A stretch of DNA of 63,618 nucleotides, the filler included, from Asterionella formosa (Eukaryota): assembly GCA_002256025.1 (NCBI GenBank). It is 17 parts of 17 records of this genome, joined end to end, with 100 filler letters (N's around TTAATTAATTAA, not from the genome) between each part and the next. Parts side by side here need not be neighbours in the genome. Positions count along the whole stretch, not along the records: positions 45,020 to 48,662 come from NKIB01014003.1; 16 more parts are not named here. One strand, given 5' to 3'. A model generated the notes under the pieces. That model was not told where the DNA came from and did no database searches. It saw only the letters and a program-made list of their open reading frames with translations. Positions 2,756-51,252 of the stretch are shown here, piece after piece (the first letter of the stretch is position 1; each line of letters starts with the position of its first letter). The position numbers and the translations under genes were made by a program.

Positions 2756-2816
2756 CTATGTGTCTTGTATGCCAAGATTCTACTTTGTGGGAATTGCAAT
2801 GCAAAGCTGATATAAG

Positions 2817-18209: not shown

Positions 18210-18780
18210 GGTGGACATTCAGTGTAATAGCAGAGGATGTACCAGAAGCATCAGCTAGCAACACAGAAAGGTGAACAAAAGTTGGTTGAACTGAAAGATT
18301 TGTTATATCTGTTGTGATTGTGTGTCGTTCAGTACTGCTATAGAACTATATCATGACGTCAGAGGACAATTACCGATTGGTATTGTACCTGGTACCAGGT
18401 ACCAGTTCGTGTAATGGGGTATGCCACTACCCGTAAAACCTGGTGCCTCGTATCCCCCCAGATACCTGTACCCCCCTTCGTACATCTGGCACAACACCCC
18501 CAAATATTTTATGTCTACAGAAAAAATAACAGCATATTATTGTATTCTAGCACTTTATTAATGAATTTACTATAATTGTATTCTTACCGGTCACCATCAT
18601 GAAACAACAATCAACAACAACACGAGCGATGCCAATGACATTTGCGATGGCGATATCCTTGTCCTGAGATCTATTTCAAANNNNNNNNNNNNNNNNNNNN
18701 NNNNNNNNNNNNNNNNNNNNNNNNTTAATTAATTAANNNNNNNNNNNNNNNNNNNNNNNNNNNNNNNNNNNNNNNNNNNN

Positions 18781-25412: not shown

Positions 25413-25745
25413 CAGGAGATGAGAGGTCAGCCAACATGGTCAGTGACCAACACTCTGTCAGATAAGTTATCTAAAATAATTCGAGTATTAGAACACAATG
25501 GCAATATTATTTATTATGTATATCAGCAAAGGATATTTGTGATGTAATGATTTTGGCACAAATTATTTTGGTATTTCGAAGTGCGCCCAGCGCCCACTGA
25601 TGATCAGCTACCAGGTACTCCGAGTACCAGGTACCTCCAATTGTGGACATTGTACCGGCAAACATGTGCATCCAGTGTGGCCATGATGGATTAGCAAGAC
25701 CGCGCAAGAAAGCGCTACCACTACGGACTAGGACTTACCTACAGC

Positions 25746-25832
25746 AAGTTGCGGTAATTTGGTTTTAACTAACAATTTAATATGGGATAAAGATAGCTAA
25801 ACATTTAGTTTTAAGCAAAATTACCGCAACTT
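25746..25832. repeat. Short imperfect inverted repeat / mini-MITE
   Basis: aagttgcggtaattt ... aaattaccgcaactt (15-bp perfect arms, extending imperfectly inward). Confidence 0.6.
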
Positions 25833-28269
25833 CCAGGAAGAAATGGCTGAATTATTTTGTCCTGTAGTGATGTGAAGCAAGCTTCACCACTGTGACCTCA
25901 CCCATTCGAACCATATCAGGTGGCTTACCAGTACCAGGTACCCTCGTACCTGGTACCATAGTATAACGGAGTTCCCATCCAATGGTCTATAGACTTCGAA
26001 AGTGTCAGGAATGCGAATCCTGCTGTCCTCGTCTCACAAGCACAAGTCACGGTATACTGTATTTCTGTAGGAGTTGGATCATTAGTAACAGCAGGCCACC
26101 AGGAACAAAACGAAAGCTCACAAAATTTCAAACATCAAACATATAAATTTCCTCTACGAACACAGAACAAAACTACAATCATCATGAANNNNNNNNNNNN
26201 NNNNNNNNNNNNNNNNNNNNNNNNNNNNNNNNTTAATTAATTAANNNNNNNNNNNNNNNNNNNNNNNNNNNNNNNNNNNNNNNNNNNNTTTTTACGTGAA
26301 GAGTGGCATTAATGCATGTGAAGTACCACATAATTAACACTCGTACGTAGACGAAATTTCGAAAAGTCAAATGAATTATTTGAAACATCAACTAATTCAG
26401 TCTCGCGTTCAAAATTCATTGTGAAAACTTCACATGAAACAGTTAAAACTTCACATGAAACCGTTAAAAGTAATCTTTTTTACGTGAAGAGTGGCATTAA
26501 TGCATGTTCGCGGCTTAGATGATGGTGAGCAATGCTCGTTTTGTAAACTCGTTCATTTTGCATATGGAAGGATCCATCAACATGGACATGGACATGGAGA
26601 TGAATTGCACACCGTCACCATCTGGGGGTTGGCGGCATTAAACAAGTCCACATATATAATGTAAGCGCAACAGCAACAAATCAGACATGATTCCTCGCAG
26701 ACAGTGCCGAATTTGACATCATGGTCGATTTCAAGCAATCATGAGGCAGCAAGCAAAATATTCAGAAATTAGGTCAACAATGTTGCTTGTTGGAAAGGGT
26801 TCTGGGACAAGGGTTTCCTCTGCATCATGGTGGAAGAGAAGGTCGTAAATGTGGAGGAGAACTGTCCCATGCAGTCGTGTTGGTCTGGCAGCTGAAATCC
26901 AACAATCAACCGAAATTCCCATTTTCTAGAGGGACAAACACAAAAGCTCGTCAATGAAGAAGTGTAGTAGATAAACTAGCTATGGTAGCTAGTTTCTATA
27001 AATATAGTGTTTCTACAATTCTCCTCCTAGTAGCACAGCATAGCTGTTTCTAGACAAGTAGCAAAAACAACATCATAATAATTAGCTACCAGTATCATTC
27101 TGGATGTTATTTTGCTCTTGGTGTAAAAAACACTACCAGTAGCAATTCACATGGTGATAATTTCCCATGCTGAGTCATCAGGAGGAGGTCGTTCAGGGCA
27201 TATAAAAGCAAGGGACACGGAAATTTGCTAAATTAGTCGACTATGATAAAAAAGTAGAGAAATTAAAATAATCGCTACAGTGCTGTAACCAAAAAGCTAC
27301 ATGACATTGCCGTAGTAGGCAACATAAGGGATCAAAAATCCTATGTATCCATAAAACGAAAAATGGTCCATGTGAATCTATCATTGTTTTCATCCTGCTC
27401 CAACGTAAACGTATTGGAGAGCAGGCAAGGGGTTTTCAGTACATGAATTTGGAAGAACTGAAAAAGGAAGAAGCAAGTCTCACTCTCGCAACTTTGTCTG
27501 TACTGTACAGTAATAGCCTTGTACTAGTCTAGTACCTGGTACAATTTAAAAATGGCTTTGAGCCACTTCGAATGGCTTTGAGTCACTTAACGATGTAATA
27601 TTAAAAATGTATACATAGATTTTTTCCAATTTTCCAGTTATGACTATATTTATTACGGCAAAGTTGTAATTTAGGTCTTGTGTTTTAGATAATCAGATAA
27701 ATGTGTCGGAAAGCAGCGATCGGCCCAAAAGTGGCAAAAAAAATATTATACCATTGAGCCGGCATCTCCGGGAAATACATGTATACATTTCTCATGAAAA
27801 TTTAATATTTAATATATATTTAGTTGTATTTAACCGCCATCGACCATGCACTATAGCATTAAATGAGTAAATTCCTCACTCTCAGTAGATGAATGCAATA
27901 TTTCTTGAAGGCCAAAAAATGGAGTCTTATTTTCATGTCAGAGACCGTAATTCACAGCAGAAATTGCTTCCGACATACCAAAAATTGAGGCAAATCGCAG
28001 TCATCTCATTAACAACGATGAAACCTACATTGGTACCGATTCATGAGGATCGACAAAATTTTCGGCATTTTCCATCTATCATGCAGGAGCAGTGATGAGT
28101 TGCATCGTAGAATTCTACGACAAGTCATATAGACACTACGACGACGACGACAAGTCATATACCTAGACACTACGACGACGACGACGACGAGACACGAACA
28201 AGAACCAAAAAAAGAAGTCGATCGAATAAACAATAGACAACTCTCATTACATTCAAGACGACATTGAAA

Positions 28270-29794
28270 ATGCTAAAAGCTTTTCGTCGAAAGAAGACAG
28301 AAACAGAATTGGAGAAATATGTCAAACGGTTGAAAGCGAATGATCCAAATTTGACTGAACTTAATCTCTCTTTTAATTCAATTGGTGATGACGGAGCCAA
28401 GGCCATTGCAGAGGCTCTCAAGATCAATACTGTCTTGACTACACTTTCTCTCTATAATAATTCAATTGGTGATGACGGAGCCAAGGCCATTGCAGAGGCT
28501 CTCAAGGTCAATACTGTCTTGACTAAACTTGAACTCAAAGATAATTCAATTGATAGTTATTTACTAAATGATATTCAAAAACTGGTTCAAAACAAGAACC
28601 GCAAACCAACAGCAGCCAATACAACTGAACTCATTTCTGAAGGTCGGTCGAAAATGAAGGAAGTTATGGACAATGTGGATTCAAGACCAATCGAGCTTCC
28701 TAAGGAATTCATTATTAGTTGTACAAACAACTTTGCTGAAAAGAGAAAACTTGGTGAAGGTTCTTTTGGTGCTGTCTACAAAGGCATGGATGACAATCAG
28801 TATTTTGCTGTGAAATGTATTCATTTCCATTTAGGTTTTTTGGACGATCAGAAAAAAGGAATTAGTAAGAGTTTTATAAAAGAATTGGAGGTAAGCTCAT
28901 CCGTAGTATCATCTATTACAGGTTGTCTAAGTCTTTTATGTTTCTGATTCTTCCATCATACTGTTTCAGGTATTAAAGAGGTTCCAACACCCTCATATTG
29001 TAACTTTGTATGGCTATCATTTGTCCCCTGTTTCATCTGATCAACACGTGGTATCTGATCAATACCTGGTGTATGAGTTATTATCCGAGGGGTCACTTGA
29101 ATCATTCTATAAGAGTGAACAAAAAAGATCAAGTCTTACAAGTACGATCCGACTTCGAATCATGAACGAAATTATTTCTGCCATCCACTTCCTTCATACC
29201 ATAGAAATGGACGGCCACACTCTGTTTCATCGTGACATCAAGTCAGCTAATATCTGCCTTGATCAGAACTATACTGCCAAGCTGATTGATTGTGGCCTAG
29301 CCAAGTTTGTGCCTAAGGGTAGCTCAGTAAAAACCAATCCAATTCCTTCCTTTATTTGTAACACAGCAGGTGATGGACAATATGGGACACGTGGCTACAT
29401 GTGTCCATATCATGCTAGGGGTAACAAATATATACCAGCATGTGACGTTTACTCATTTGGCATTGTCATGATTGAGCTTGTAACAGGCTGCCTCCAATTT
29501 GGAAGGCTGAAAGAGTTCCATGAACGCTATTTCCCGGAAAATTTTGATGGGACCCCAACTCAAGCATTGGAGGTGGCAATTCCAAAATTGGTAAAAGATG
29601 TTGATTCTGAAGCAGATGAATGGGAAGATGTAATTCTGTCCTCTGTTTGCTCATTAGCCATTCGTTGCATTCAGACCAATCGCGAGAAAAGGCCAACAAC
29701 TAAAGATTTGGTTAAAGAGTTGGGTGAACTTGTAAGGCCAACACCACAAATGATAATTGCATTTGACAATCTTAACCTGAATGAAAGCACTTAA
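28270..29794 (+). CDS. Cytoplasmic LRR (RI/NLRC3-like 28-aa repeats) + IRAK/Pelle-like kinase (exons 28270-28890 and 28970-29794, 481 aa)
   Basis: LxxLxLxxNSIGDDGAKAIAEALKxNTV x2.5. A phase-0 GTAAG...TTCAG intron (28891-28969, 79 nt) sits at the same site as in the ARM kinase. Motifs GEGSFGAVYKG, FAVK, HRDIKSAN, IDCGLAK, GTRGYMCP and DVYSFG are present. Confidence 0.9.
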
Positions 29795-29869
29795 CAATGT
29801 GTCTTGTGTGCCAAGATTCTACTTTGTGGGAATTGCAATGCAGAGCTGATATAGGCAATGCAACAATTG

Positions 29870-29939
29870 TTAGGGTTAGGGTTAGGGTTAGGGTTTAGGT
29901 TTAGGTTTAGGGTTAGGGTTAGGGTTAGGGTTAGGGTTA
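29870..29939 (+). repeat. Telomeric repeat array (TTAGGG)n with TTTAGG variants, running to the contig end
   Basis: About 12 units, G-rich strand oriented toward the contig end as expected for a chromosome terminus. Confidence 0.85.
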
Positions 29940-32920: not shown

Positions 32921-33789
32921 ACAATGCTGACTTCAAGAAAACTCATTATGCTACCTGGCACTACATTCCGGCTGCAGACATGGTGAATGTCACTGTTGTT
33001 GGCCTTGAGGCCGCCCCAGACTTGCCCATCCATTTTCATGTTGCCAAATTTTCGTTTCTTTGCAAGGCAGTTTTTCTCCTGTTTGTTTGTAGTCAGCCAA
33101 TTTTGATTATCATGTACCACTCCATAGTATAAAGCAAAACAACTATTCTGGCTAGAGAAGGGAGATACAAGTAAATTCAATAGCCCTAAATGATGCACAT
33201 GTTTCGCTATCTAGCGTTATTCTCTCGCCTAAATACCGGCATACTAAAAACCCAACCGACGTACCCATAGCATTCATCATATCGCGTACAGTAGAATAAT
33301 TATATTGCCTCTTACACAGAGGGCTTCTTTTAAGGACGTGGATCGAGCCGGGGTACCTGGTACCAGGGTAGTCGCTGAGTGTGTTGCATCTATCCCGGAA
33401 CACAGGGAGCACCGGTATAGCTCCCTCATTTCACTGGAGTATGTGGAATGGTGTATACTACTACAATGCACAACTTTTCCGAAGGATTGTATTTGCTGTA
33501 CTACCGGTACATTCGCACGGTTGCAAAAAGAAACAGGATTTTACGTTGGATATCATCAGCATTACTTGCTTGTTCTTCCCATTGCTACGGCCAACAACTT
33601 GACCGAGGGATTAACTTAATAATACCGGTAGCCTAGCATATACAGTGTTATATTTAGAAAATACTATATTCCAACCATGCGCTTGTCCANNNNNNNNNNN
33701 NNNNNNNNNNNNNNNNNNNNNNNNNNNNNNNNNTTAATTAATTAANNNNNNNNNNNNNNNNNNNNNNNNNNNNNNNNNNNNNNNNNNNN

Positions 33790-34451: not shown

Positions 34452-37436
34452 ATGGCAATGTATTCAAGGGTTCCTGTGATTCCTTTGATCAAAGACTACA
34501 ATGTATTGACTATCAAGACTATAACATTCAGAGTTGCTTTAACCGGTGGAAGGTTTGAATCGTTTGATCAAGATATGATTGATGGAAGCTCGGTGGAAGG
34601 AGTGAGTCAATTTCGTGACATGGCTAACACATGTGCCTTTAGCCCTGCAGATACCTTTTCCTACTTTAAAAGGTGTTTGACCAACATTGCCCTATCGGAT
34701 TGGTTGAATGTGGAAGTACACCCAGAAGATCAATCTTACGATAGTTTCGATGAAGCGATGGTTTTATGGTTAGATGATCGTTTACCAAACGAGAGTTTTC
34801 AACATCAACAACAATGGATGCTACGTACATTATTTATCTAAACCCATTTCTATGTTGGTAATGGAGTTTGGAGCTCGTATTAAAACTTTAAACAGGCTAC
34901 TTCAACTAATGCCTCATCCAGAAGATCAAAACAGATTGTCAAAAGAAGATATGCGGATTATCATTATCCGTTCTATGCCCGATGAGTGGCAACAAGAGTT
35001 TGAATTAAATCATGCGAAGACTTCAGACCAATCGATTCGCTCGGTTCTCGCTTACTTCGAGAGTCAACAATCGTTTAAGGACCGAAACAACAAGCATCTT
35101 CCCACGAACAGTTTTCAAACAATCACACAGAACCGTCTTCGCATTGCTGAAGGCAATCGTGTGATGCGTCAAGAAAACGAGCGTGCCAGTCGTCAATTCT
35201 ACAACGATAATTTTACTCCAAGTGGTCGTGGAAGAGCGCGTGCTATTGTCAATGCAGCCGGACGCGCATGGGATCGTCAGGCGACTGATCGTCATCAAGC
35301 TCTACAAGCCAGTCGTACGTACCATGATTATCGTGGTCCTTGCCCGGTACATCCTGAAGGTGTACATACTTGGGGCAATTGTTTCCAGAATCCTCGTACT
35401 CAAGGTGGTCAAGCAGGTCATATGGCTGGTCGTCATAATGGACATGGCCGTTCCAGTTTCGGTAGAAGAGGACATGTTGGTGGTCGTGGAGGCGGCTCAC
35501 ATAGCAATCCTACGGAAAGTTATCATACTGACACTGCTAACCCTGTGTCTGTTCCACATGCTCGTATGTTAAATGCATGGGGTCATAATACTCATCCATC
35601 CGGTTGGGGTACCGTGCCACGTGCCGATCCTACCGAGAATATATCTGCCCAGGAAATTTCAGTGGTCACGAACCCTCCTGCTAGTCAGATAGTGACTTTT
35701 GTCCCTACTACACAACAGCAGATTGCTGATCGCCATCACAGAGGTATGTGCGATAATAGCGATGCTATTTATAATGACTTGTTGAGTATATCTCACGCTG
35801 GTCATCACCTGAATAATATTGTTTACTTACAGGTTGAATACACTATGGATACCACTGTTACTGTAATGCGGGATATATATAACTGTATTGATGGACATGA
35901 TGTTCCACATACATATCAGGGCCCAATTCCGGTTTCCTGTTTTACTTCTAAGGATATATTACTAACATCAATTGATTTGATTCCGATGTCCCTTTTTAGC
36001 GCCAAGATTGGTGGATAATATACCGATACATAAAATACTACGAGTATTATTCGATAGTGGAGGATCGTTATCCTAAATACATGAACGGGTTATGCCTCAA
36101 GGTATTTCTTTGTCTGACGAGACTTCCCAATTAATACATACCATAGCTGGTACTTATTCATCTCATGCCAGTGTCATGTTACATGACCTGATTCTACCAG
36201 AATTTAATCGATCCGCTCATATTTTACAACAAAAGTGTCAAGTCTTTAATGGTCTATGCACATTTGATGTTATTTTAGGACGTGATTTCCTCCGTCAAGT
36301 TGGTTTAACCATTGATTTTGTAAATAACACCATGTCCTGTATGCATATGATTGTTCCTATGCATCCTCTCACATTCTTTGATGATAGAGAACGTTTACGA
36401 GATGTATTATTATATTACGATGCACCTATGATTGTGGAACCTTCATATGCGCTGGAAATTAAAGCTGCTGAATATAATTACGTAAATATTGATACAGTCT
36501 CCCTATGGGGGTGAAACAATCATCTGATATTGCACAAGAAACTATGGAACAGATCCTTAGTGATTTAGATGATGTGGAAATTTATGTTGATGATGTGGGT
36601 TGTTTTTCAATGAATTTTTCGGATCACCTTCATTTATTGGACACTATTTTATATCGTTTACAGACAAATGGTTTTACAATTAATCCATCTAAGTGTGAAT
36701 GGGCTGTCCAAGAGACAGATTGGTTAGGCTATTGGTTAACTCCTAATGGACTGAAACCTTGGTCTAAAGAGTTCCGAGCATTGATTAATATGTCTTCACC
36801 TACCAATCTTAAACAAGTTCGATCATTTCTCAGTGCTGTTACTTACTATCGAGACATGTTTCCTAGACGATCTCATGTTCTTGGACCACTTACGGATTTA
36901 ATTGGAACTAGTCCATTTGTCTGGTTACCTATCCATCAACAAGAAGCTTTTGAAGAAATGAAAGCATTGTTAGTTGCAGATACACTCATGCGTTATCCTG
37001 ACCATAATCTTCCTTTTCATATCTTTAGCTACTGATGCCTCTGATTATCAATTAGGGTCGGTCATTATACAAAATGATCTCCCAGTTGCTTATTATTCTC
37101 GCAAATTATCTGCTGCTCAAAAGAATTATACTACTATTGAAAAAGAATTACTTTCTGTGGTAGAAACTTTCAAAGAATTTCGTTCTATGTTATTGGGTGC
37201 AGTTCTTCATGTTCACACTGATCATCGAAATCTTCTTTATAATACTTTACATACTCAACGTGTTCTACGATGGAGACTTTATATTGAAGAATACCAGCCT
37301 ACTTTTCATTATGTGAAAGGGACTGACAATGCTATTGCAGATTCCATCTCTCGCCTCCCGAGGCTTGAGTCTTTGGTGGAGGATGATATTGATATTGGAC
37401 CGAAATCTCCAACATCAACTTCCACTTCTACTTTTT
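34452..37436 (+). mobile_element. Ty3/gypsy LTR retrotransposon (gag, protease, partial RT, RNase H), degenerate
   Basis: Gag with CPVHPEGVHTWGNC knuckle, protease VLFDSG and DVILGRDFL, RT MGVKQSSD / YVDD / NPSKCEW, and RNase [26 protein letters not shown] in gypsy order. Frameshifts are present and the RT N-terminal half is missing. Confidence 0.92.
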
Positions 37437-37536
37437 NNNNNNNNNNNNNNNNNNNNNNNNNNNNNNNNNNNNNNNNNNNNTTAATTAATTAANNNNNNNN
37501 NNNNNNNNNNNNNNNNNNNNNNNNNNNNNNNNNNNN

Positions 37537-40500
37537 ATTATCCAAAGCAACCCAATCGGCGATTGGGAGACGATGGGGACACCATCAGCTACTAGTACAA
37601 AGAATCCCGTAATTGATACTGACAGCAATGATGACGTTTCTACTTCAGTTGTTGATACAAGAAAAATGGCTCCTGTCGATGATGCCATTAATAACTCCCG
37701 GATGCAGATGGACGACATGGTACCATATCATAAATTTTCTAATCGCATGGACCAACAAGTACATGACAACCTGAGGGAAAAACATTTTGTACTTGCCAAA
37801 GGATATTATCAATTGGTAAATGAACTCAATCACTACAAAGGTCGTAATTCGGTTCAAAACTCGTCCATACAAGGTTATCAAGACTCTTCAATTTCAGCAG
37901 CCTTATCAGAACGTCGTTCCCGCTTAGCTAAAATTGAAACAAACCATCAATTGTCAAAAAGGTTTTGAGTTTTGTTTGCTTTCAAGACCAAGATGTTTTC
38001 CTGTGAACATGTAAGTTTGATGTTATAGTTTGTGAATTGCAGGTACTGTAAAACAGAATATCAATCAAATGTGCTTTTTTCTGTTCCCAAAAGAGAATCA
38101 AACATCCCGCCCTATCTGGTCCAAGTAGTATGAAAGGCATTTCCAATCACAAACAGGATTGGTTTGCCGAATATTGCCTAACTCGGCTATACACAGTGAA
38201 ACCGGAGTTAGGCAAAGAAGTGGAGAGTGACCCAGAGCTTGCCGATTTCATATGGAATGGTTCTGATGCACTAGCTACTTCCAATGAATCAGACCATTGA
38301 ACGTACCAACAAGGCACGTTTAGATTACATCAAATCAACATTTGGTGGCATGTGCATTGAAAAGTTGAGAGAATGTCAGAATGTATTGAATAATCAATTT
38401 AAAGGAATCTTAGGTAAGTTCTTGCAGGGAGATGCTCCGAAAGCATGATGTTTTGAGTCGGGGATTATATTCTTATCAAATATGTTTCAATTTAAAAATG
38501 CTAACACAATTCATGACACACCAGCTGGTCTAACAGAATATAACTTCCAGACTATGTATATTGATGACTTTATTAGGTGGGCGTTAACGCTTTATCGTTT
38601 TGCGCAGTCAAAGGACATTGACAGGGGAAGCCATGTATACCAAGTCTGGCGTGATGTTCTTGCTCTGGTGTATTTTGTTATAGGCAGGATTTTTAACAGG
38701 AGACAAATCTGGTGTGACCAAGCCAAATTTCAACTCAGTCTTCGGGCACAATGTGAATTGCAATCACGTTTTGTTGGTTCGCTGATCAATGCCAGTACAG
38801 AAGCATTTTGCTTCTTGGTGCGTGCTGAAAGAAAAATTCCGATTACAACAAAAATATTTGGGTTTCAATCCAGATACCCATGAAATTTCAGAGAATTAGT
38901 GATATTCGTCATTCTACCGATTTTGTCGACATTGGTGGGAAACCACTTATTAAAAAAAGTGTGAGCAAGGGAAGAAAGTTCAGTTTCAAATGGTCTTACG
39001 GATCAATGGACTGATGATTTACTCATTTATTATAGCTAAGGAAATCTACACTGGACTTTCACAAAAGAATCGATCTGAATATGGAAGGAATCCTAGTGGA
39101 ATTGCTACTCCCACCACAAATATCATCTACCCACACTCATACTTCTCATTTCCCAACGTAAGTAAAGAGGATATGCATGAATTTGTTGAATCACTTCAAC
39201 CAAATGTTCCTGAAAAGAATATTGATTATAATGACCGCATTAATCAACGGGACATTGATGACAATGTTGATTTTGAATGGATCTAATGGAATCCAATGCA
39301 TACTTAGTAGTTACATAATAATTATAGTTAGTGTGAGACTTCTACAAATGCAAGCCATATCATAGATGATAGGAAAACATTGATTCTGCTCTATACTACT
39401 ATTACTATTAGTGTCGCCTGTACTAGCTATATGTAGCGGTATACCTCCATTTTTACTACTATGGTGGAGTGATAATTTCACGACTCTGTATTTTCCAGCA
39501 CAGCATGTTCGAAGTGGCACTCAATTTATTATTATATATTAATTCATTTTCATTCTATCCTTTTCATATACTGACTTGTTCATCTTTTGCAATTTGCAAT
39601 GTCTTTGCGCACATTGCAATGGTGTTATCTGTGTAACTACAAATTTCGGAAGAACAGATCCCCATCTGAGTCTCACAATCGAAATTGTAGCAACCGTGTT
39701 TTTTATGCATGTGGTCACTGTCGACATTGCATACAGGAACATCGAGTTCCTGGAATACATAGTGAAACTATGTATTGCGGTAGTGCATCTAATCAATAAA
39801 GGAAAGAAGTTAATGATGGCAGTGTAACTGCTGCAGCATTTAGGGAGATTAGACAAAGAAGAGATTTTGTGTCCTATCCTTGAATCAAGTGACCACAATC
39901 ATCCACTTCATGACGACAGCGACAATTCAGTTTATAACAATATTCAGTCACAACAGGACGAACAATTGAGACTAAAAACTCTCCAAGGGTTGAATTCAGA
40001 AACCATGCAATATTCAGATTTTCAAGATCGCACCGGCTTTCTCCCTGAAAATGCAATGGAAATGCCCCTTCCTCCTCAATTTCAACTTCCAAGTAAACAT
40101 TCTCTGAACATGCATCCAATTGAATTAGAACTCATGTTATTCCTCAACGAGAATTATCTTCCACCAGTTTACTTTGATCATCTAATGAAATGGCTGTTCA
40201 AGGCAAAAGCAATGAAATATTTTGATGGAAGGTAGCTATCATCAAGCTCCATCCTACCAGACTTTGAAAAAACGCATGGATATTTCATTTCCACCAACAT
40301 TAGCTGGTGGTCAACTGTTGACCAAACAAATAAAGATTGATAACAATTCAAATATGATCATCCCACACACACTCCATTATTTGTTCATCAAATGAATGAG
40401 AATCACTGAGTTCTTCTTCATTATCAGCGATTTCGGGAGAATGAGGAGCAAAATACGACACTGGATGGTGGAACTGTGACTCTGTACAAATAGAGTCTTC

Positions 40501-41176
40501 ATCCACGAAGACCAACTGTTTGGGTTTCCTCTTGCTTTCGAAAGCAATCATTCCTTCTTTTCAATCTCAGCCACTATTTTATCGGTTGGCATACTTCATT
40601 ATTACTATTTTCTGGATTATTATGAATCTGTTCAAATTCATTTGATCTTTGAGTGTATTCAAAGGAGCAAATCTTCGATTGATTTCATAACTTTCTTCAT
40701 CTTCTTTTCCGAAAACATAAAGTCGTGTAGTGTAAACAATGGAAGTAAGTCTCGTTTCTTGTTTGACTGATCCTTTCCATGAAATCCGTGAAATGCCATT
40801 TGGAAAGTTGTCAAAGGGCCAAAAGACAATGATGTAAAACAGTGGAAGGGAAACGCGGAGCTTTTCGCGGAGCTTATTGAGGCGCCTGTGGAGGTGGAAC
40901 TGGTGTGATGGTAACCGAGTGTAGTAAATGTTGAACAGAGCACAGGAGTGTAATATGCATGTTCCGCCAGCGTAGTGTTTACACAATACACATGCTGGCA
41001 CATATATAGCTAAAACAAGGAAAGACGACACGACAATGAACGTGATAACTGGCTGGTTGTTGAGGATACCGGTATGTGATATGCATCAATCCATATCACA
41101 AATCATATTATAGTGATGTACATATCAACGCATCCGTATACTTAGATCCTATCCACAGTATAATACTATCATATTA
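37537..41176 (+). repeat. Multicopy degenerate element; whole contig is near-identical to the reverse complement of 41277-44919
   Basis: Mirror-image ORF set with only a handful of SNPs/indels. A diverged third copy of its left part is at 56244-57300. ELELMLFLNENYLPPVYFDHLMKW..APSYQTLKKRM loosely resembles the N-terminus of Plavaka/CACTA-like transposases (weak). Confidence 0.85.
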
Positions 41177-41276
41177 NNNNNNNNNNNNNNNNNNNNNNNN
41201 NNNNNNNNNNNNNNNNNNNNTTAATTAATTAANNNNNNNNNNNNNNNNNNNNNNNNNNNNNNNNNNNNNNNNNNNN

Positions 41277-44200
41277 TAATATGATAGTATTATACTGTGG
41301 ATAGGATCTAAGTATACGGATGCGTTGATATGTACATCACTATAATATGATTTGTGATATGGATTGATGCATATCACATACCGGTATCCTCAACAACCAG
41401 CCAGTTATCACGTTCATTGTCGTGTCGTCTTTCCTTGTTTTAGCTATATATGTGCCAGCATGTGTATTGTGTAAACACTACGCTGGCGGAACATGCATAT
41501 TACACTCCTGTGCTCTGTTCAACATTTACTACACTCGGTTACCATCACACCAGTTCCACCTCCACAGGCGCCTCAATAAGCTCCGCGAAAAGCTCCGCGT
41601 TTCCCTTCCACTGTTTTACATCATTGTCTTTTGGCCCTTTGACAACTTTCCAAATGGCATTTCACGGATTTCATGGAAAGGATCAGTCAAACAAGAAACG
41701 AGACTTACTTCCATTGTTTACACTACACGACTTTATGTTTTCGGAAAAGAAGATGAAGAAAGTTATGAAATCAATCGAAGATTTGCTCCTTTGAATACAC
41801 TCAAAGATCAAATGAATTTGAACAGATTCATAATAATCCAGAAAATAGTAATAATGAAGTATGCCAACCGATAAAATAGTGGCTGAGATTGAAAAGAAGG
41901 AATGATTGCTTTCGAAAGCAAGAGGAAACCCAAACAGTTGGTCTTCGTGGATGAAGACTCTATTTGTACAGAGTCACAGTTCCACCATCCAGTGTCGTAT
42001 TTTGCTCCTCATTCTCCCGAAATCGCTGATAATGAAGAAGAACTCAGTGATTCTCATTCATTTGATGAACAAATAATGGAGTGTGTGTGGGATGATCATA
42101 TTTGAATTGTTATCAATCTTTATTTGTTTGGTCAACAGTTGACCACCAGCTAATGTTGGTGGAAATGAAATATCCATGCGTTTTTTCAAAGTCTGGTAGG
42201 ATGGAGCTTGATGATAGCTACCTTCCATCAAAATATTTCATTGCTTTTGCCTTGAACAGCCATTTCATTAGATGATCAAAGTAAACTGGTGGAAGATAAT
42301 TCTCGTTGAGGAATAACATGAGTTCTAATTCAATTGGATGCATGTTCAGAGAATGTTTACTTGGAAGTTGAAATTGAGGAGGAAGGGGCATTTCCATTGC
42401 ATTTTCAGGGAGAAAGCCGGTGCGATCTTGAAAATCTGAATATTGCATGGTTTCTGAATTCAACCCTTGGAGAGTTTTTAGTCTCAATTGTTCGTCCTGT
42501 TGTGACTGAATATTGTTATAAACTGAATTGTCGCTGTCGTCATGAAGTGGATGATTGTGGTCACTTGATTCAAGGATAGGACACAAAATCTCTTCTTTGT
42601 CTAATCTCCCTAAATGCTGCAGCAGTTACACTGCCATCATTAACTTCTTTCCTTTATTGATTAGATGCACTACCGCAATACATAGTTTCACTATGTATTC
42701 CAGGAACTCGATGTTCCTGTATGCAATGTCGACAGTGACCACATGCATAAAAAACACGGTTGCTACAATTTCGATTGTGAGACTCAGATGGGGATCTGTT
42801 CTTCCGAAATTTGTAGTTACACAGATAACACCATTGCAATGTGCGCAAAGACATTGCAAATTGCAAAAGATGAACAAGTCAGTATATGAAAAGGATAGAA
42901 TGAAAATGAATTAATATATAATAATAAATTGAGTGCCACTTCGAACATGCTGTGCTGGAAAATACAGAGTCGTGAAATTATCACTCCACCATAGTAGTAA
43001 AAATGGAGGTATACCGCTACATATAGCTAGTACAGGCGACACTAATAGTAATAGTAGTATAGAGCAGAATCAATGTTTTCCTATCATCTATGATATGGCT
43101 TGCATTTGTAGAAGTCTCACACTAACTATAATTATTATGTAACTACTAAGTATGCATTGGATTCCATTAGATCCATTCAAAATCAACATTGTCATCAATG
43201 TCCCGTTGATTAATGCGGTCATTATAATCAATATTCTTTTCAGGAACATTTGGTTGAAGTGATTCAACAAATTCATGCATATCCTCTTTACTTACGTTGG
43301 GAAATGAGAAGTATGAGTGTGGGTAGATGATATTTGTGGTGGGAGTAGCAATTCCACTAGGATTCCTTCCATATTCAGATCGATTCTTTTGTGAAAGTCC
43401 AGTGTAGATTTCCTTAGCTATAATAAATGAGTAAATCATCAGTCCATTGATCCGTAAGGCCATTTGAAACTGAACTTTCTTCCCTTGCTCACACTTTTTT
43501 TAATAAGTGGTTTCCCACCAATGTCGACAAAATCGGTAGAATGACGAATATCGCTAATTCTCTGAAATTTCATGGGTATCTGGATTGAAACCCAAATATT
43601 TTTGTTGTAATCGGAATTTTTCTTTCAGCACGCACCAAGAAGCAAAATGCTTCTGTACTGGCATTGATCAGCGAACCAACAAAACGTGATTGCAATTCAC
43701 ATTGTGCCCGAAGACTGAGTTGAAATTTGGCTTGGTCACACCAGATTTGTCTCCTGTTAAAAATCCTGCCTATAACAAAATACACCAGAGCAAGAACATC
43801 ACGCCAGACTTGGTATACATGGCTTCCCCTGTCAATGTCCTTTGACTGCGCAAAACGATAAAGCGTTAACGCCCACCTAATAAAGTCATCAATATACATA
43901 GTCTGGAAGTTAGCTATATTCTGTTAGACCAGCTGGTGTGTCATGAATTATGTTAGCATTTTTAAATTGAAACATATTTGATAAGAATATAATCCCCGAC
44001 TCAAAACATCATGCTTTCGGAGCATCTCCCTGCAAGAACTTACCTAAGATTCCTTTAAATTGATTATTCAATACATTCTGACATTCTCTCAACTTTTCAA
44101 TGCACATGCCACCAAATGTTGATTTGATGTAATCTAAACGTGCCTTGTTGGTACGTTCAATGGTCTGATTCATTGGAAGTAGCTAGTGCATCAGAACCAT

Positions 44201-44919
44201 TCCATATGAAATCGGCAAGCTCTGGGTCACTCTCCACTTCTTTGCCTACCTCCGGTTTCACTGTGTGTAGCCGAGTTAGGCAACATTCGGCAAACCAATC
44301 CTGTTTGTGATTGGAAATGCCTTTCATACTACTTGGACCAGATAGGGCGGGATGTTTGATTCTCTTTTGGGAACAGAAAAAAGCACATTTGATTGATATT
44401 CTGTTTTACAGTACCTGCAATTCACAAACTATAACATCAAACTTACATGTTCACAGGAAAACATCTTGGTCTTGAAAGCAAACAAAACTCAAAACCTTTT
44501 TGACAATTGATGGTTTGTTTCAATTTTAGCTAAGCGGGAACGACGTTCTGATAAGGCTGCTGAAATTGAAGAGTCTTGATAACCTTGTATGGACGAGTTT
44601 TGAACCGAATTACGACCTTTGTAGTGATTGAGTTCATTTACCAATTGATAATATCCTTTGGAAAGTACAAAATGTTTTTCCCTCAGGTTGTTATGTACTT
44701 GTTGGTCCGTGCGATTAGAAATTTATGATATGGTACCATGTCGTCCATCTGCATCCGGGAGTTATTAATGGCATCATCGACAGGAGCCATTTTTCTTGTA
44801 TCAACAACTGAAGTAGAAACGTCATCATTGCTGTCAGTATCAATTACGGGATTCTTTGTACTAGTAGCTGATGGTGTCCCCATCGTCTCCCAATCGCCGA
44901 TTGGGTTGCTTTGGATAAT
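41277..44919 (-). repeat. Allelic or near-identical copy of contig 37537-41176
   Basis: Same start and end points. Differences include MVLRING vs MALRING, a 4-nt AGCT insertion near 43912 and a 1-nt deletion near 44720. Confidence 0.9.
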
Positions 44920-45218
44920 NNNNNNNNNNNNNNNNNNNNNNNNNNNNNNNNNNNNNNNNNNNNTTAATTAATTAANNNNNNNNNNNNNNNNNNNNNNNNN
45001 NNNNNNNNNNNNNNNNNNNAGGACTTTGTCTAATACAGATTTATAATATTACAAATATTCGTCTCAAACCGTGTGATTACCCCGTTTTGTTATGACTATC
45101 AGTACAAAACTGAAAGTTTGTATGACTCTCAGTTTTTAGGTGGTACTGATACTGCGACTGCGTCTGGACCAGTATCAGTACCGGTATCCAATGCTCCAGT
45201 ATACTTTCACCGGAACGG

Positions 45219-45448
45219 AAGAATTACGAACACGACCACAAAGAAAAAGGCGTTTCATCGATAAAACAACCAAATGCATCAACGAGAACAAAGCAAACAT
45301 GGCGACAACTATCAGTGGCTCATTCGCCCATACCCACCATGATGCTCCATTTGTGAACGTGTATGCCGTACAAGTGGAGCTCTTTAGGAATGGAATCTGT
45401 CCTTATCACGCAGACATTCAGCTTCGCAATGCGATCATGAACGAATGA
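45219..45448 (+). pseudogene. Truncated remnant of the ARM-kinase family 5' cassette (5'UTR + N-terminal CxxH motif)
   Basis: ATG at 45299 gives MATTISGSFAHTHHDAPFVNVYAVQVELFRNGICPYHADIQLR, vs ..ASYARTHRDAPILNDHGVQVELIKNGLCPYHPDIQLR in gene 313. It stops shortly after. Confidence 0.8.
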
Positions 45449-45573
45449 AACCCGATGAACCACAATGCTAATGTATCAATCGGGGAAATTTCAATAAAGA
45501 AGAACATAAATGTAAATTCCAAGTCGAAGTTAAACAATATATCAGTTTCGTAATTACAATCATAAATACTAAT

Positions 45574-48246
45574 CTAAATATACGATGACCACCATTTCCC
45601 ACGTTGGGTCATTATGCTAAGTGCTTCATTACCATTTTCTTGAACACCAGCATTGTATGAGTGCTTTCGCATAGCAGATTCGATGTCGGCTTTTCCACCA
45701 GCATTGGAAATCCTCAACTGATTGCGGTCATTATTATTTGCCAAGTTACAAAGTGCTCGACAACCATGCTTTTGCACATTGGCATTGTCTAAATGACACC
45801 TCATCGCAGACAGAATCATAATTATACCTCCTGCTTCAGCAATCGTCCCCTTGTTTCTGTCATTATTCTCAGCCAATCTCAAAAGTGCTCCACAACCATA
45901 CTCTTGCACATTAGCATTAAATGTGCAATTCCTCATTGCCGACAGAATCGTAGTTATACCTCCTGCTTCAGCAATCGTCATCTTGTTATTGTCATTATTC
46001 AAAGCCAAGTTCATAAGTGCTCCTAAACCATATTCTTGTACCTTAGCAGTTGATAAATGAGTCGCCATTGCAGACAGAATCGTAGTTATACCTCCTGCTT
46101 CAGAAATCGACACCTTGTTATTGTCATTATTATTAACCAAGTCCATAAGTGCTCCACAACAATACTCTTGCACATTAGCATTGTATAAATGAAACTTCAT
46201 TGCAGACAGAATCGTAGTTATACCTCCTGCTTCAGCAATCGTCATCTTGTTATTGTCATTATTCAAAGCCAAGTTCATAAGTACTGCACAACCATAGTGT
46301 TGCACATCCGCTATCAAGGAATGAGCCTTCATTGCAGACAGAATAATAATGATACCTCCTACTTCAGCAATCTTCACCTTGATATTGTCATTATTCAAAG
46401 CCAAGTTCATAAGTGCTCCACAACCACACTCTTGCACATTAGCATTGTCTAAATATTCATCCATCGCAGACAGAATCGTAATTATACCTCCTGCTTCAGC
46501 AATCGTCACCTTGTTTCTGTCATTATTCTCAGTCAATCTCAAAAGTGCTCCACAACCATACTCTTGCACATTAGCATTATATGAATGAATCTTCATTGCC
46601 GACAGAATCGTAGTTATACCTCCTGCTTCAGCAATTGTCACCTTGTGGTTGTCATTATTTGCAGCCAAGTTGAAAAGTGTTGCACAACCATTTTGTTGTA
46701 CATTAGCATTGGAGTAATGAGTCTTCATTGCAGACAGAATCGCAGACAGAATCGACGTGATAAGTCGTTCTCCTACAATAATCTTACCCATGTAGTCGTC
46801 ATTATAAGCCAAGTTCCCAATTATTCCACAACCATATTGTTGCACAATAGCATTGTCTAAATGAAACTTCATCGCAGACAGAATCGTAGTGATACCTCCT
46901 GCTTCAGCAATTGTCACCCTGTTATTGTAATTCATAGCCAACTTCCAAAGTGTTCTACAGTTATATTCTTGCTCATCCGCATTGGATTCATAAGTCTTCA
47001 TCCCAGACAGAATCGAAGTGATATCTTCTGCGACAAAACCAATCATGTTTTTCAAGTCGACAGAGATAAATGTGACTTGCTTTTCATAATTTGCCAAATC
47101 ACAAAGCACATGCTTTTTGAGCGCAAAACGCCAAGTTCTGGATTTCAGTACCTCCTTGTCAAACTCTTCCAAGCAATGGCGCATCATACCTTTTCTTTCC
47201 AGATCTAAAACAAATTCTTTGAAATCCTTCAGCTTGTTCAGGTCGAACCCAGACTTCTTGTATTCCTTCAGACCCTCAGCAGGTGATGATTTATTCACTT
47301 CATCAAGAAAATTCTTGACATTGAGCACAACATCACCTGGAAGCGTGGGAATAGGATACCCAAATGCTTTTGCCAATCCCCCAGCCACGATCCATAGCAT
47401 AGTTTCTTTCACTCCAACAGCAAACAACTGGGCCCCTATCTCTGCAAACTGTTCGATTTGCATCCGATATTTTGCCGTTTCTATTTTGTACGAGACAACT
47501 GGCTGGAGCGTCAATCCACACAACACCTGAAGATATACCACTTCAGTCTTACCACTGGAAAGTCGCCTGCCTTTTCTGAGAGCAATGCCTGTCTCCTTGT
47601 TCTTCAAAGAGTCAGGATAGTCGCGGAAACATTCAAATAACTTCAGAGCTCGATCAATAATTTCTACCAATTCCTTCACTCCATCGCTAGCTCGTTTTCT
47701 CAATGATTGCTCGAGCATCAATGTGCTCTTGAATGTTTTAAACTCATCAGCAGTGAGAAGGTTAAACATGTATGGGAATTCCACCTCGTCAAGTTGGTCC
47801 ATCAAATCAGGGATTTGGCCGTTGCTCAACTGTATGTATTTTAGCGTCACAGACTGGGCATGCAGAAAAGCATCGGCAAGAACCTTGGTTTCAACCATGA
47901 CATCCTTGGTTTCATCAGGGAATTGGGGCACGACATCCTTGATTTCATCCACCACGGATTCATTGTCATCAAATTGACTAATAATATCCTTCCAACCATG
48001 ATAGGTAGCTTGTACGCCATACTCATTCGTAATTGAAGCATCATGGGTAGGGGCGTATGAAACTGCAGACAATGACATGTTTGAATAGTTCTCGTTGATT
48101 GCTTTGGCTGTTTGTGATCGCAAGTGTGATAAAACTGTAACGCCGTCTTCTTTGTGGGCGTGTTTGTAATTCTTGAGTCTCCACGTTGTAGAAGCATCAT
48201 GGGTAGGGGCGTATGAAACTGCAGACAATGGCTTTGACAATGGCAT
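45574..48246 (-). CDS. Chimeric protein: family N-terminal peptide + helical/COR-like domain + about 11 C-terminal ARM repeats (890 aa from first ATG; alternative ATG 48078 gives 834 aa)
   Basis: Uninterrupted ORF (the track start at 48372 is TTG). About 11 44-aa repeats of the same family as gene 313, including the homologous C-cap NAGG..IESAMRKHSYNAGVQENGNEAL. Confidence 0.85.
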   Translation of the reverse strand: MPLSKPLSAVSYAPTHDASTTWRLKNYKHAHKEDGVTVLSHLRSQTAKAINENYSNMSLSAVSYAPTHDASITNEYGVQATYHGWKDIISQFDDNESVVDEIKDVVPQFPDETKDVMVETKVLADAFLHAQSVTLKYIQLSNGQIPDLMDQLDEVEFPYMFNLLTADEFKTFKSTLMLEQSLRKRASDGVKELVEIIDRALKLFECFRDYPDSLKNKETGIALRKGRRLSSGKTEVVYLQVLCGLTLQPVVSYKIETAKYRMQIEQFAEIGAQLFAVGVKETMLWIVAGGLAKAFGYPIPTLPGDVVLNVKNFLDEVNKSSPAEGLKEYKKSGFDLNKLKDFKEFVLDLERKGMMRHCLEEFDKEVLKSRTWRFALKKHVLCDLANYEKQVTFISVDLKNMIGFVAEDITSILSGMKTYESNADEQEYNCRTLWKLAMNYNNRVTIAEAGGITTILSAMKFHLDNAIVQQYGCGIIGNLAYNDDYMGKIIVGERLITSILSAILSAMKTHYSNANVQQNGCATLFNLAANNDNHKVTIAEAGGITTILSAMKIHSYNANVQEYGCGALLRLTENNDRNKVTIAEAGGIITILSAMDEYLDNANVQECGCGALMNLALNNDNIKVKIAEVGGIIIILSAMKAHSLIADVQHYGCAVLMNLALNNDNNKMTIAEAGGITTILSAMKFHLYNANVQEYCCGALMDLVNNNDNNKVSISEAGGITTILSAMATHLSTAKVQEYGLGALMNLALNNDNNKMTIAEAGGITTILSAMRNCTFNANVQEYGCGALLRLAENNDRNKGTIAEAGGIIMILSAMRCHLDNANVQKHGCRALCNLANNNDRNQLRISNAGGKADIESAMRKHSYNAGVQENGNEALSIMTQRGKWWSSYI

Positions 48247-48485
48247 GTTTGAATAGTTCTCGTTGATTGCTTTGGCTGTTTGTGATCGCACGTGTGATGA
48301 AACTGTAGCGCCATTCTCTTTGTGGGCGTGTTTGTAGTTCTTGAGACTCCACCATCTGTCGTTGACATGCAAGCTACAAATTCATTCAGTCATCAAAAAC
48401 ATGCCGGAATAGTTTTGTTTGTGATCGCACGTATGATGAAACTGTAGCGCGGTTTTCTTTGTGAGCGTGTTCGTCATTCTTGAGA
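48010..48485 (-). repeat. 168-bp tandem duplication (plus partial third copy) of the 5'UTR/start cassette
   Basis: LKNYKHAHKE..SQTAKAINENYSNM..SAVSYAPTHDAS occurs twice. Third partial copy at 48415-48485. Confidence 0.85.
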
Positions 48486-48567
48486 AGGGTTAGATTTAGG
48501 TTTACAGGTACGCAACAGGTATTCGGGAACCAGGTACCAGGTACTTTACTGGCACCAGGTACCAGGT

Positions 48568-48645
48568 ACAGAACACCATATGTTCAGGACTGTTGCTACT
48601 GCAGTGGGACAGTAAATCATCATAGTTTTAGGATCGTATGATCGA
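48568..48645. repeat. Dispersed short repeat, also present twice (reverse orientation) at about 57645-57715 and 57757-57810
   Basis: gatcctgaaactatgatgatttactgtccc.ctg.agtagcaacagt is shared by all three. Confidence 0.8.
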
Positions 48646-51252
48646 AAAACTAAAAACAAATANNNNNNNNNNNNNNNNNNNNNNNNNNNNNNNNNNNNNN
48701 NNNNNNTTAATTAATTAANNNNNNNNNNNNNNNNNNNNNNNNNNNNNNNNNNNNNNNNNNNNAAAATGGAAAAAACAGGGCAAGAGTCTTCATCAATCAA
48801 ATTCTTGGTTTGATTGGGTTGAAGTGAATTGGGAAAGTCGAAATGGGAAAAATTACAGTGTACCAGCAAAATTACTTTTACGGGGTAACGTGGTTGTCGT
48901 TTATTCAGATGGAACTGACTCCTTGCATCTATACGTTCTTTGAGGAGTACCACTGTCATGCCAGCCCATCATCGCATCTTTTTTGCTACAGGTGATTACA
49001 TTTGTGATGAGAAGACTGGATTAAGCGTTGTTGAGCATAACAACATTCTTTCCACAGCATTTGTTGTCCCAGCTTTAGCACCAGCTACAATCGCTCAGTG
49101 AATGTAAGAGTACATGAGAAACCGTTGAAGCCATGGAAAATATAGATTATTATCTTGCATTTCCACCTCGAAATCAATGGAAATTGATTGGTTGGGATAT
49201 TCCTTTAAGTACAGAGAAGTAGCGCTAATCGTCACAATACAAATTATTACGAATATACTTCAACATTTAATAACTGCCTCCGAATTCATAGTTTACTTAT
49301 CTTTATGATTTTTTTGAGAACCTGACGATGAAAATAAACTGTCATCATCCACTGATTCTTCCGAAGATTTCAAGAAACTCTTGAAGAATTGTATAGTATA
49401 TCATGCTGGCTGTCATTCAGGAGAACAGCATACCTGCTCACTTTCTGCATGCCCTCAGCAACAACGAAAGCACGTTCGTATTCTTTTTCAAATTTCAAGG
49501 TTTCTTTATTACCGTGCCAATGGTAAGATTCTACGGGATGATGAACCATTTTACTAAGATAGCTACGTCAGTTCAGTTGTAGTTAACATCGGAGAGAAAT
49601 CGAATTCAGGAATGAACTCCATTGCTGCAACTTTGTCACAACATGAACCCACAATGGTGTTGAGAACATATACCATAACTGCATCTTCAAAGTCATTTTC
49701 TGGATTACCAGGAAATGACCATCAATTTTGATTTTCACCCTTAAATTTCATTTTCATAAATGTTTCCCAACCATCCTTTGTTAAACGTGACTCACTTTGT
49801 TTCTCCATAAAATTAGTTTCTCCACTGTATCGTAGTTGTAGTAGTAATTCCATAAACTTCACAATTGTAAAGGGAACACAAGACCATCCACCATCCTTGG
49901 TTGGTTGGAAATCTTTGAATCTGAATGTTTTGCTATAAAACTTTTCAGAGGGCCTTTCCCCACCGCCCACCTTAAATTGAGGTTCCCCATTCCAATTTGT
50001 CGCCATATCCCGAAACAGCAGCTGCAAACTTTCCCTTTATCGATTCTTTCGATACAAGTAATTGATGTGTTTCTTCACTTCTCCTCGCTCTTTCGCATAA
50101 ATATTTATGAATTCCTTCATCAAATAATTTCAATAATGATTTATCATTACAGGATAAATCACTTATCTCCTTGAAGCTGCTCAATTACTGTCCCAGTGAC
50201 TGAAACAGTTTCGGAAATCTTTGGTAAGTAGTCATGAATTACATCCAGACTGGCGACCATGTCCTGCTTGAATATTTCCAATTCCTTACTGGATAAATGG
50301 GACAAATCACTTTCCTCGTCGACCTGTTCTTTATTTACTTTCCCAATCACTCCTACAATTTCGGAACTCTTTGGTGACAAGTCATGAACTACCTCTTCCA
50401 GATTGGCAACCATGTCTGGAGTTGCCTTTGATTTACATTTTGCTTTTTCTTTATCAAGTCTATCATGTTCGACAGACTCCATTAGACGCTCTGAGGAAGT
50501 AGAAACAAGATCTACCACGGGCATACAAGCAACACGATCTTTACTTTTTGGAATGGTATTGGGAGAAGATGAACTGGCATCAACTATTTCGTTTTCACTT
50601 GCCTCTGTCAATGCAAAAACGGAGAATGCATGATGTCGGTGATCTTTATTTGGAATAACAGGTATGACTAATTCCATCGGCTTGTCAGGGAAAAAAGTTT
50701 CCCAATTTTCCTCTTTTCTTCTGTATCAATACAAGCACCAACAATATTAATAAAAATACAGGGAACATTTGAAACGCCCCCAAAACGGAGAAGTTTATCA
50801 GTATCATTGGACTCATTTCGACAACCATTGTTGCTCTACGACATTGGAATCAGCAATTGATTGAATAATGGTTCTGGTACTACCCTCATCAATATTTTAC
50901 ACTTCTTCGGAGTGGCGAGAACATATGTGTGGGACAAGCTACACTACGTAAATATAAGCTATATAAATATAGTTATCACTTTGTGGAAACTATGTTTGTG
51001 GCAATGGGGTTAGGCTGTTCTATATAGTGCCTCTGATGTTGCCGATAAAGAGATTTCTTTAAACAATGGGATAGTACAATGTTATTAAGCCAATTTACGA
51101 TTGTTATTTCGAACCCCCTGCTATTCAAGGTTCATGTGATGCTACTATTTCCTGAATGAAATGAAGCTACTTCCTGATCAGTGATGTTGTGGCTCTAACC
51201 CTTGGTAACTAATATATACAAGTTCTCATATACGCATAACTTAACATGTGTA

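Follow-up and report, generated by a model that had tools for sequence, protein, structure and literature searches.

A Kinase-Less Chimeric Gene of Asterionella formosa Combines Modules of Two Kinase Families

The DNA analyzed here (hereafter the window) is a stretch of 63,618 nucleotides from the assembly GCA_002256025.1 of the diatom Asterionella formosa, in which 17 parts of 17 records are joined end to end. The present analysis concerns one gene on its minus strand (45574..48246, record NKIB01014003.1), hereafter the target, and reveals that it is a real, open and kinase-less chimera. Its 5′ cassette and its array of armadillo (ARM) repeats are of the type found in an ARM-kinase gene of the window (gene 313), and the kinase tail and post-kinase domain that lie between them are of the type found in kinases carrying leucine-rich repeats (LRR) or ankyrin repeats (ANK). 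We consider it fairly likely that the target is a chimera of these two lineage-specific kinase families, and that it arose by the capture of a 3′ fragment; more tentatively, its product may be an inert scaffold.

Results

The frame 45574..48372 (−) is open over 932 codons counted from the upstream stop, with in-frame ATG codons at 48246, which an earlier reading made from the sequence alone (the sequence-only reading) took as the start, and at 48078. This open frame of 890-932 codons sits in DNA of ~38-41% G+C and encodes, in this order, the 5′ cassette, a kinase tail (YHGWKDIISQF), a domain of ~265 aa and 11 ARM repeats. In the 932-aa open reading frame (ORF), Pfam (E ≤ 1) detected no Pkinase domain and only ARM-type families, at residues ~450-930. 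The kinase parts of three relatives of the target (P0004, P0015 and P0016) had no match anywhere on its contig. The intact chimera without kinase that the sequence-only reading had described is therefore confirmed: the frame is open, Pfam finds no Pkinase and the last kinase helix is kept.

The window is a chain of ~17 separate contigs of ~3.65 kb sorted by length, the spacing between N blocks decreasing from 3756 to 3738. All 16 large N blocks (window 3659-59981) consist of 44 N, TTAATTAATTAA and 44 N, the spacer having stops in the six frames. The uniform spacers and the falling spacing indicate that the window is made of joined contigs rather than of a single locus, and gene neighbourhood across the N blocks is therefore without meaning. 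The target's contig (45020-48662) lies between the spacers at 44920-45019 and 48663-48762; gene 313 (contig 1-3658) and an ankyrin-kinase gene (contig 11270-14925) are both located outside it, and an LRR-kinase lies on the contig 26289-29939. An argument based on the lack of any kinase within 15 kb upstream of the target was abandoned because this upstream sequence belongs to other contigs.

The domain that follows the kinase tail, hereafter the post-kinase domain (47035..47826, −), was delimited by a hidden Markov model (HMM) built without the target, by 55 relatives and by an AlphaFold2 (AF2) model as a mixed alpha/beta domain of ~265 aa. It shows the motifs IPxLM, (C/F)PY(L/M)F, VYLQLLCGxTxxPVVSYKI, FGYPxPxLP and KQ(V/I)T(F/W)IS. 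An exhaustive HMMER search of 1.84 billion proteins with ORF residues 120-449 retrieved 55 representatives at E ≤ 1e-3, 38 at E ≤ 1e-10 and nine at E ≤ 1e-30. An HMM built from 36 relatives, the target being left out, recognised the target (3.2e-87; profile positions 1-264 of 265, ORF residues 183-446), and no Pfam family covers this domain in the 37 aligned members. A word-index search with the middle region of the target returned no homologue, which reflects the limits of this method since HMMER found the family. With the family alignment (A1), the "longer" word-index search, which covered only proteins of 1524-4350 aa, returned none, and the "near" search found the family.

Pfam was used to scan 22 relatives. 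Ten of them carry a Pkinase domain, always directly N-terminal of the post-kinase domain, and several also carry LRR or ankyrin repeats; ARM repeats are found in none of the ten kinase-bearing relatives. The sequence-only reading had proposed to look for paralogues retaining the kinase; the closest kinase-bearing relative is P0064 (62% identical). The target departs from all ten by the presence of the cassette in the kinase's place before the domain. Judged from these comparisons, the post-kinase domain forms a genuine family, located after the kinase in a lineage-restricted set of LRR- and ANK-kinases. None of the papers listed by full-text literature searches dealt with this domain or with diatom chimeras of ARM/ANK/LRR-kinases.

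Within this family, P0065, P0069 and P0008 carry two post-kinase domains in tandem with a coiled-coil-like linker between them, followed in P0065 by ARM repeats. CaaX-like C-termini were read in four of the 22 relatives, P0031, P0037, P0040 and P0047 (CVVL, CAIM, CAVM, CVIS), in each case after a low-complexity tail; these ends hint at prenylation and at a family acting at membranes. A match of 25 aa to the HMM (28538-28630, E = 0.0056), antisense to the LRR-kinase ORF, was taken as due to chance.

At the 5′ edge of the region shared with the kinase-bearing relatives, the target retains a scar, YHGWKDIISQFDDN (47962..48003, −), equivalent to the helix that ends a protein-kinase domain, past the arginine of subdomain XI; TYHGWKDIISQF was located at 48006-47971 in the target. 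The cassette homology stops at ...GTACAAG (48011) and the tail homology begins at TATCAT (48003), so that 7 nt separate them (junction 1, 48004..48010, −). The match of this tail to that of the ankyrin-kinase, reported by the sequence-only reading, holds: 28 of 35 nt are identical between 48003-47969 and 12620-12586, which is the unique best non-self match in the window on both strands (the next one reaching 23/35). In the ankyrin-kinase, the counterpart of the tail is the end of the Pkinase match, which reaches profile position 253 of 263.

The similarity of the tail is also supported by the family alignments; a failure on this point would have refuted the sequence-only reading. The target's YHGWKDIISQFDD is aligned there with FKGWTEIIHKLED (P0004), HRRWADIIEKLKD (P0018), YLCWNEIISKLEN (P0039) and YFYWKHIIKDLDD (P0064), and other relatives have similar tails, each of them coming after the kinase subdomain-XI motif P..R. 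Altogether, the scar aligns with the xxWx[DE][IV][IL]xxL tails of 15 kinase-bearing relatives, and the subdomain-XI sequence also precedes the tail in P0018, P0031, P0033, P0039, P0049, P0051, P0061 and P0064. The blastp alignments of the target with P0018 (1e-27), P0039 (2e-23) and P0004 (6e-25) all start at Y or QATYH, and tblastn placed residues 574-868 of P0004 on 48003..47041. Between the scar and the post-kinase domain, a helical linker (ESVVDEIKDVV...LHAQSVTLKY; 47827..47961, −) is common to P0018, P0064 and P0067, and helices 20-28 and 35-65 of the model fall in this region.

The ankyrin-kinase gene itself (12054-14800, −) is broken: compared with P0061, it shows overlapping frame changes near 13710, 13310 and 12880 and an in-frame stop at 12555-12557. 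It is either a true pseudogene or the product of indel errors in a low-quality assembly.

Upstream of junction 1, blastn self-matches and DNA alignment revealed three tandem copies of a shared 5′ cassette (48011..48520, −), two copies being present in one RNA-library contig. This cassette is composed of a stretch resembling a 5′ untranslated region (UTR), an ATG and ~24 codons, and its third copy in the target encodes MSLSAVSYAPTHDASITNEYGVQA. Elsewhere in the window, blastn detected the cassette at 336-391 (+), 3150-3086 (−) and 45219-45374 (+). Gene 313 begins with the same ATG cassette as the target, and both the related protein P0067 and the related locus L001 begin at MSLSAV, i.e., at the cassette ATG. 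Within the window, the cassette goes only with the gene-313 type. The start motif SY[AT].TH.DA was found only in gene 313, and the kinase-less P0067 alone shows GVQ leading directly into the kinase tail.

Several additional observations concern this cassette and its surroundings. An orphan inverted copy (45219..45448, +) faces the 3′ end of the target and carries a truncated ORF of 49 codons, MATTISGSFAHTHHDAPF...CPYHADIQLRNAIMNE*, which ends after a CPYHxDIQLR motif just short of the target's 3′ end; a contig from a library that may be of RNA exactly covers 45230-45428 in this copy. After its cassette, the N-terminus of gene 313 (313-480, +) reads ELIKNGLCPYHPDIQLRKKKRFGGWKTVRDSCPKCNRL, which is Cys/His-rich and zinc-finger-like, without any Pfam match, and this motif also starts in the orphan copy (45390-45425). 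Upstream of the target's cassette, 48568-48644 shares a repeat of 54-77 nt (92-96% identity) with another contig (57639-57809). Clusters of the palindrome GTACCWGGTAC were found at 15577-15739, 18385-18395, 25611-25949, 27532, 33353-33360, 48530-48562 and 59519, with ~30 8-mer matches compared to roughly four expected by our estimate. Several of these clusters precede a gene by a few hundred bases (those of the LRR-kinase, of a fucoxanthin chlorophyll a/c protein (FCP) and the target), and this palindrome may be a candidate promoter element.

The 3′ part of the target encodes 11 ARM repeats of ~44 aa (45577..47022, −), followed by the stop codon (45574-45576), as delimited by Pfam, Tandem Repeats Finder (TRF) and a list of the repeats. 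The Pfam matches are ARM_LRRK2 (7.8e-26, 91 bits for a cut-off of 26.2) and Arm (1.7e-09, 37.8 bits for a cut-off of 20.6); the units are spaced by 43, 48 and then eight times 44 residues, and TRF gave a period of 132 nt repeated 9.7 times with 76% matches. Gene 313 encodes seven ARM repeats followed by the kinase. The repeats are thus N-terminal there and C-terminal in the target, as the sequence-only reading had stated. By tblastn, the ARM repeats of the target show 53-62% identity with 595-1479. Since its first and last repeats correspond to the first and last of the seven-repeat array of gene 313, the whole array is common to the two genes.

At junction 2 (47023..47034, −), the first ARM repeat takes over where the post-kinase domain reaches its natural C-terminal end: the relatives P0004 and P0064 end 9-17 residues past ...VTFIS. 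P0003/L001 have the junction 2 of the target, and in P0005 and P0065 the fusion of the domain with ARM repeats falls almost at this position, small indels apart. At 1830-1930 (+), the kinase of gene 313 is divided between two frames overlapping at 1847-1977 (…KRELQ / VLKRFRHPNIV…), a pattern that suggests a short intron (~90 nt) more than a frameshift.

The junctions of the target recur in independent sequences. P0067 (211 aa, 80% identical) reads MSLSAVSYTPTHDASITSEYGVQANYHGWKDMISKF... and has the same cassette-to-tail junction. The same junction is found in L001, the sole locus obtained from the related-locus search with a single protein, which shows 91.4% DNA identity over 1309 nt; a coverage of 0.89 is stated in its record name. 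The 3′ flank of L001 matches 26522-26706 at 92%; like the repeat at 48568-48644, these are small dispersed repeats.

Of the 18 sequencing runs listed, 16 contain parts of the target stretch; 15 of them are recorded as RNA, and they come from 13 studies. Four runs (X1-X4) were aligned to the stretch. RNA-library pieces without any difference cover 45419-45640, 47615-47744 and 48261-48451, and a likely 3′ UTR (45419..45573, −) is delineated by zero-difference contigs at 45419-45640 (X2) and 45424-45597 (X3). The cassette/tail junction is bridged by records 29 and 30 of X4, the latter skipping one cassette copy. Contigs spanning the domain/ARM junction are record 13 of X2, record 19 of X3, record 27 of X4 and record 4 of X1, at 91-95% identity; they probably come from paralogues or other strains. 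Furthermore, polyA RNA libraries show an even depth that continues from the domain into the cassette (864 for record 29 of X4 versus 784 for record 27). The transcript support across each junction proposed as a check by the sequence-only reading is thus provided by bridging contigs, and the target is probably transcribed.

When the family alignment was used, AF2 gave for the post-kinase domain a mixed alpha/beta model with a predicted local distance difference test score (pLDDT) of 75.3 and a predicted template modelling score (pTM) of 0.72; from the single sequence, the model was useless (pLDDT 35.9). Among the searches of the middle region proposed by the sequence-only reading (HHpred or Foldseek), Foldseek was run against the PDB and gave no clear fold match, with nothing at E ≤ 0.001 (best E = 0.48). 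The best E value was 0.18 in the BFVD structure search, and 0.054 and 0.24 in the PDB sequence and profile searches with the domain; the ESM Atlas gave no usable match to the model. VIA-align reached at best Z = 5.9 in a wide search, on long helices only, and Z = 4.9 in a second look, the beta-rich parts being barely covered. The prediction of a two-copy complex of the domain scored 0.00, its own fold being uncertain in this run, which did not use the family alignment and speaks neither for nor against self-association.

The tentative resemblance of this region to the COR domain of Roco proteins put forward by the sequence-only reading is not upheld. Ras/Roc is absent from the Pfam matches of the 932-aa ORF (E ≤ 1) and of the 22 relatives (E ≤ 1e-4). 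At E ≤ 5, the 330-aa middle region gave only PYRIN (0.46) and no COR profile, COR is absent from the best 25 of 38 Pfam families for 37 family members, and no LRRK2 or Roco chain is found among the structural matches listed. The parallel drawn between FPYMFNL...VYLQVLCGLT of the target and CPRIVYI...IYFVCQHS of the ankyrin-kinase pseudogene also fails, since hhalign aligned 13 columns with a probability of 0.66%. The ORF of the pseudogene tail (12054-12554) is not among the matches of the target-free family HMM at E ≤ 10 and reaches only E = 1.3 against the post-kinase domain by blastp; the tblastn alignment of P0064 beyond the kinase tail is rich in gaps, and the likeness is limited to motifs (IPxIM, CPxI, Y(F/L)xxC). 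P0061 is 73-89% identical to the ankyrin-kinase of the window over its first 312 residues and carries a post-kinase domain of the target type. By these comparisons, the link between the target and the ankyrin-kinase family is real, and passes through P0061 instead of the pseudogene tail.

Among the other features of the window, 37436-45020 is a perfect palindrome (99-100% identical, arms of 3.79 kb) centred in a spacer: the contigs 37537-41176 and 41277-44919 are reverse-complement duplicates, i.e., one contig present twice in the assembly. Telomere-type TTAGGG repeats are located at 29925-29939, at the end of the LRR-kinase contig. Another contig encodes an FCP; FCPI-6 and Lhcr12, which come from a diatom, are its best relatives of solved structure (E = 1.6e-92). 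Copia- and gypsy-type elements are also present, and this content points to a diatom-like alga.

Discussion

In the capture reading that we favour, the two ends of the target, i.e., the cassette and the full ARM array with both capping repeats, would derive from a gene-313-like ARM-kinase gene, and its middle would be the 3′ module of an LRR/ANK-kinase gene, from the last kinase helix almost to the natural stop. Ectopic recombination would have set this 3′ fragment between the cassette and the ARM array of the ARM-kinase paralogue, and the host's own downstream kinase would have been lost, leaving neither parental kinase domain in the target. What looks like a scar would in that case mark the 5′ border of the captured fragment. 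The junction would be older than the split of at least three copies, which are 80-91% identical, and the number of ARM repeats would have changed later, from ~3 to 11.

The sequence-only reading proposed instead that recombination deleted the kinase while preserving the frame, linking both kinase families into one shuffling network. Kinase absence, open frame and the combination of modules of two families in the target all stand; for a deletion in place, no precursor was found. A gene made of cassette, repeats, kinase, domain and ARM repeats that lost its kinase by in-frame deletion, the last helix being left, would account for a tail lying in frame directly after the cassette, and unequal recombination is common here, as seen from the tandem domains of P0065, P0069 and P0008 and from ARM arrays ranging from ~3 to 11 repeats. 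However, none of the relatives found combines the cassette, the kinase, the post-kinase domain and ARM repeats in one gene. Capture is favoured because cassette and ARM array alike resemble those of gene 313, because the ten kinase-bearing relatives are all devoid of ARM repeats and because the start motif of the cassette is restricted to gene 313. The restriction of the cassette to the gene-313 type in the window, and of GVQ followed by the tail to a kinase-less protein, also stand against a deletion in place, which we regard as unlikely.

Several observations weigh against our reading of the gene as a whole, and some of them would suit other explanations. A 14-aa profile of the tail alone ranks the target only fourth among 1633 ORFs, with a non-significant E value of 0.48, the ankyrin-kinase pseudogene coming first (E = 0.018); the weight of the tail homology comes from its position and from the continuity of the alignments into the domain. 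The order of events is one that we infer, the donor and host genes not being among those found. L001, which has only ~3 ARM repeats, carries an in-frame stop 76 codons in, and the RNA-library contigs indicate presence only, without strand or transcript ends and with DNA possibly included. Coding constraint, as estimated from sequence divergence, looks weak or absent: the window copy and L001 differ over 397 codons by 17 synonymous and 61 non-synonymous changes, which gives a ratio of non-synonymous to synonymous substitution rates (dN/dS) of 0.97 (1.3 inside the post-kinase domain), and the RNA contigs show 12 synonymous and 28 non-synonymous differences among the 40 listed of 193. The ratio near 1 and the stop of L001 speak for drift or for diversifying change. 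Together with the broken ankyrin-kinase on another contig, these observations would fit a young transcribed relic, i.e., a chimera as described here that drifts neutrally and is open only through its recency. This is possible but rather doubtful, since 890-932 codons are open, the junction is kept in the three copies, the polyA-library depth is level from the domain into the cassette and the stop of L001 may be a sequencing error. Furthermore, the contig extends only 290 nt upstream of the ORF, so that, from the DNA alone, a kinase exon could lie beyond 48662, the cassette copies then being intronic or an alternative promoter; an AG is located at 48012-48011, on the cassette/tail border, and the depth of X4 falls upstream of ~48324. 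Such an incomplete gene model is nevertheless very improbable: the RNA contigs are continuous from the tail to the cassette with a depth like that of the coding part, no pyrimidine tract precedes this AG, and the cassette ATG starts gene 313 and P0067 and is found in the same frame in L001. An artefactual joining of cassette and tail through mis-assembly of repeats might be suspected in a very fragmented assembly with a repeated cassette and one pair of reverse-complement duplicate contigs, but P0067 and L001 show this junction too, as do contigs from the RNA libraries of other studies; this explanation is largely refuted and hardly credible.

The target and its relatives can be compared with several known systems. 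The KA1 domain of MARK/Kcc4-type kinases is a conserved non-catalytic C-terminal domain thought to regulate or localise a Ser/Thr kinase. Like KA1, the post-kinase domain is directly C-terminal of the kinase, and the CaaX-like ends of four of the 22 relatives hint at the membrane; however, it is much longer (~265 aa versus ~100 aa), and no sequence or fold match to a solved structure was found for it. Paralogues that lack the kinase, or keep only a pseudokinase, and act as scaffolds or decoys are a general concept. The target likewise keeps interaction modules and has lost catalysis, but it lacks the entire catalytic domain except its last helix. The combination of ARM, ANK or LRR repeats with a kinase and an additional conserved non-catalytic domain recalls ROCO/LRRK2 proteins, and the best ARM match in Pfam is the LRRK2 ARM repeat. 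However, the family of the target is devoid of Roc GTPase in the 22 relatives scanned, and its additional domain is located after the kinase and not before it. PMC11378527 gives the ROC-COR tandem as the defining feature of the ROCO family and brown-algal ROCO genes as a case of exon/domain shuffling in a stramenopile receptor-like family. These genes resemble those found here in being lineage-specific, fast-diversifying, repeat-bearing signalling genes whose paralogue modules are recombined; they differ in that LRR exons are shuffled there, whereas whole modules are recombined and the catalytic domain is lost here (PMC11378527).

The protein encoded by the target would be a catalytically inert scaffold whose post-kinase domain might keep the contacts that it makes in kinases. 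These could be self-association, partner binding or membrane apposition. Such a scaffold would tie ARM-bound clients to the kinase-bearing paralogues, or compete with these paralogues; the decoy or adaptor role evoked by the sequence-only reading is speculation. A bolder and improbable proposal is that diatoms have an immune-receptor-like system of their own, with the domain as a new effector or oligomerisation module; sensor repeats (LRR, ANK or ARM) would be associated in it with a kinase and the post-kinase domain, the kinase-less forms being regulators or decoys in the same assemblies. Copy-number change, dN/dS ~1, pseudogenes and CaaX-anchored members are the traits of the family cited for it, and a conserved amphipathic helix rich in Gly and Ala (AEIGAQLFAVGV...AGGLAKAFGYP) could serve in it for membrane contact or self-association.

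Chimeras resulting from module shuffling among paralogues are well known, and the event itself is unsurprising. What this gene exposes is a conserved post-kinase domain of ~265 residues without Pfam family, solved relative or clear fold match, and the kinase-less natural fusion indicates that this domain can persist as a separate module. Since the cassette is found both on several genes and in orphan fragments, units made of a promoter and a start codon seem to be moved among genes in this alga. If the family is a fast-evolving sensing system, its members without a kinase would amount to natural variants of the dominant-negative or adaptor type.

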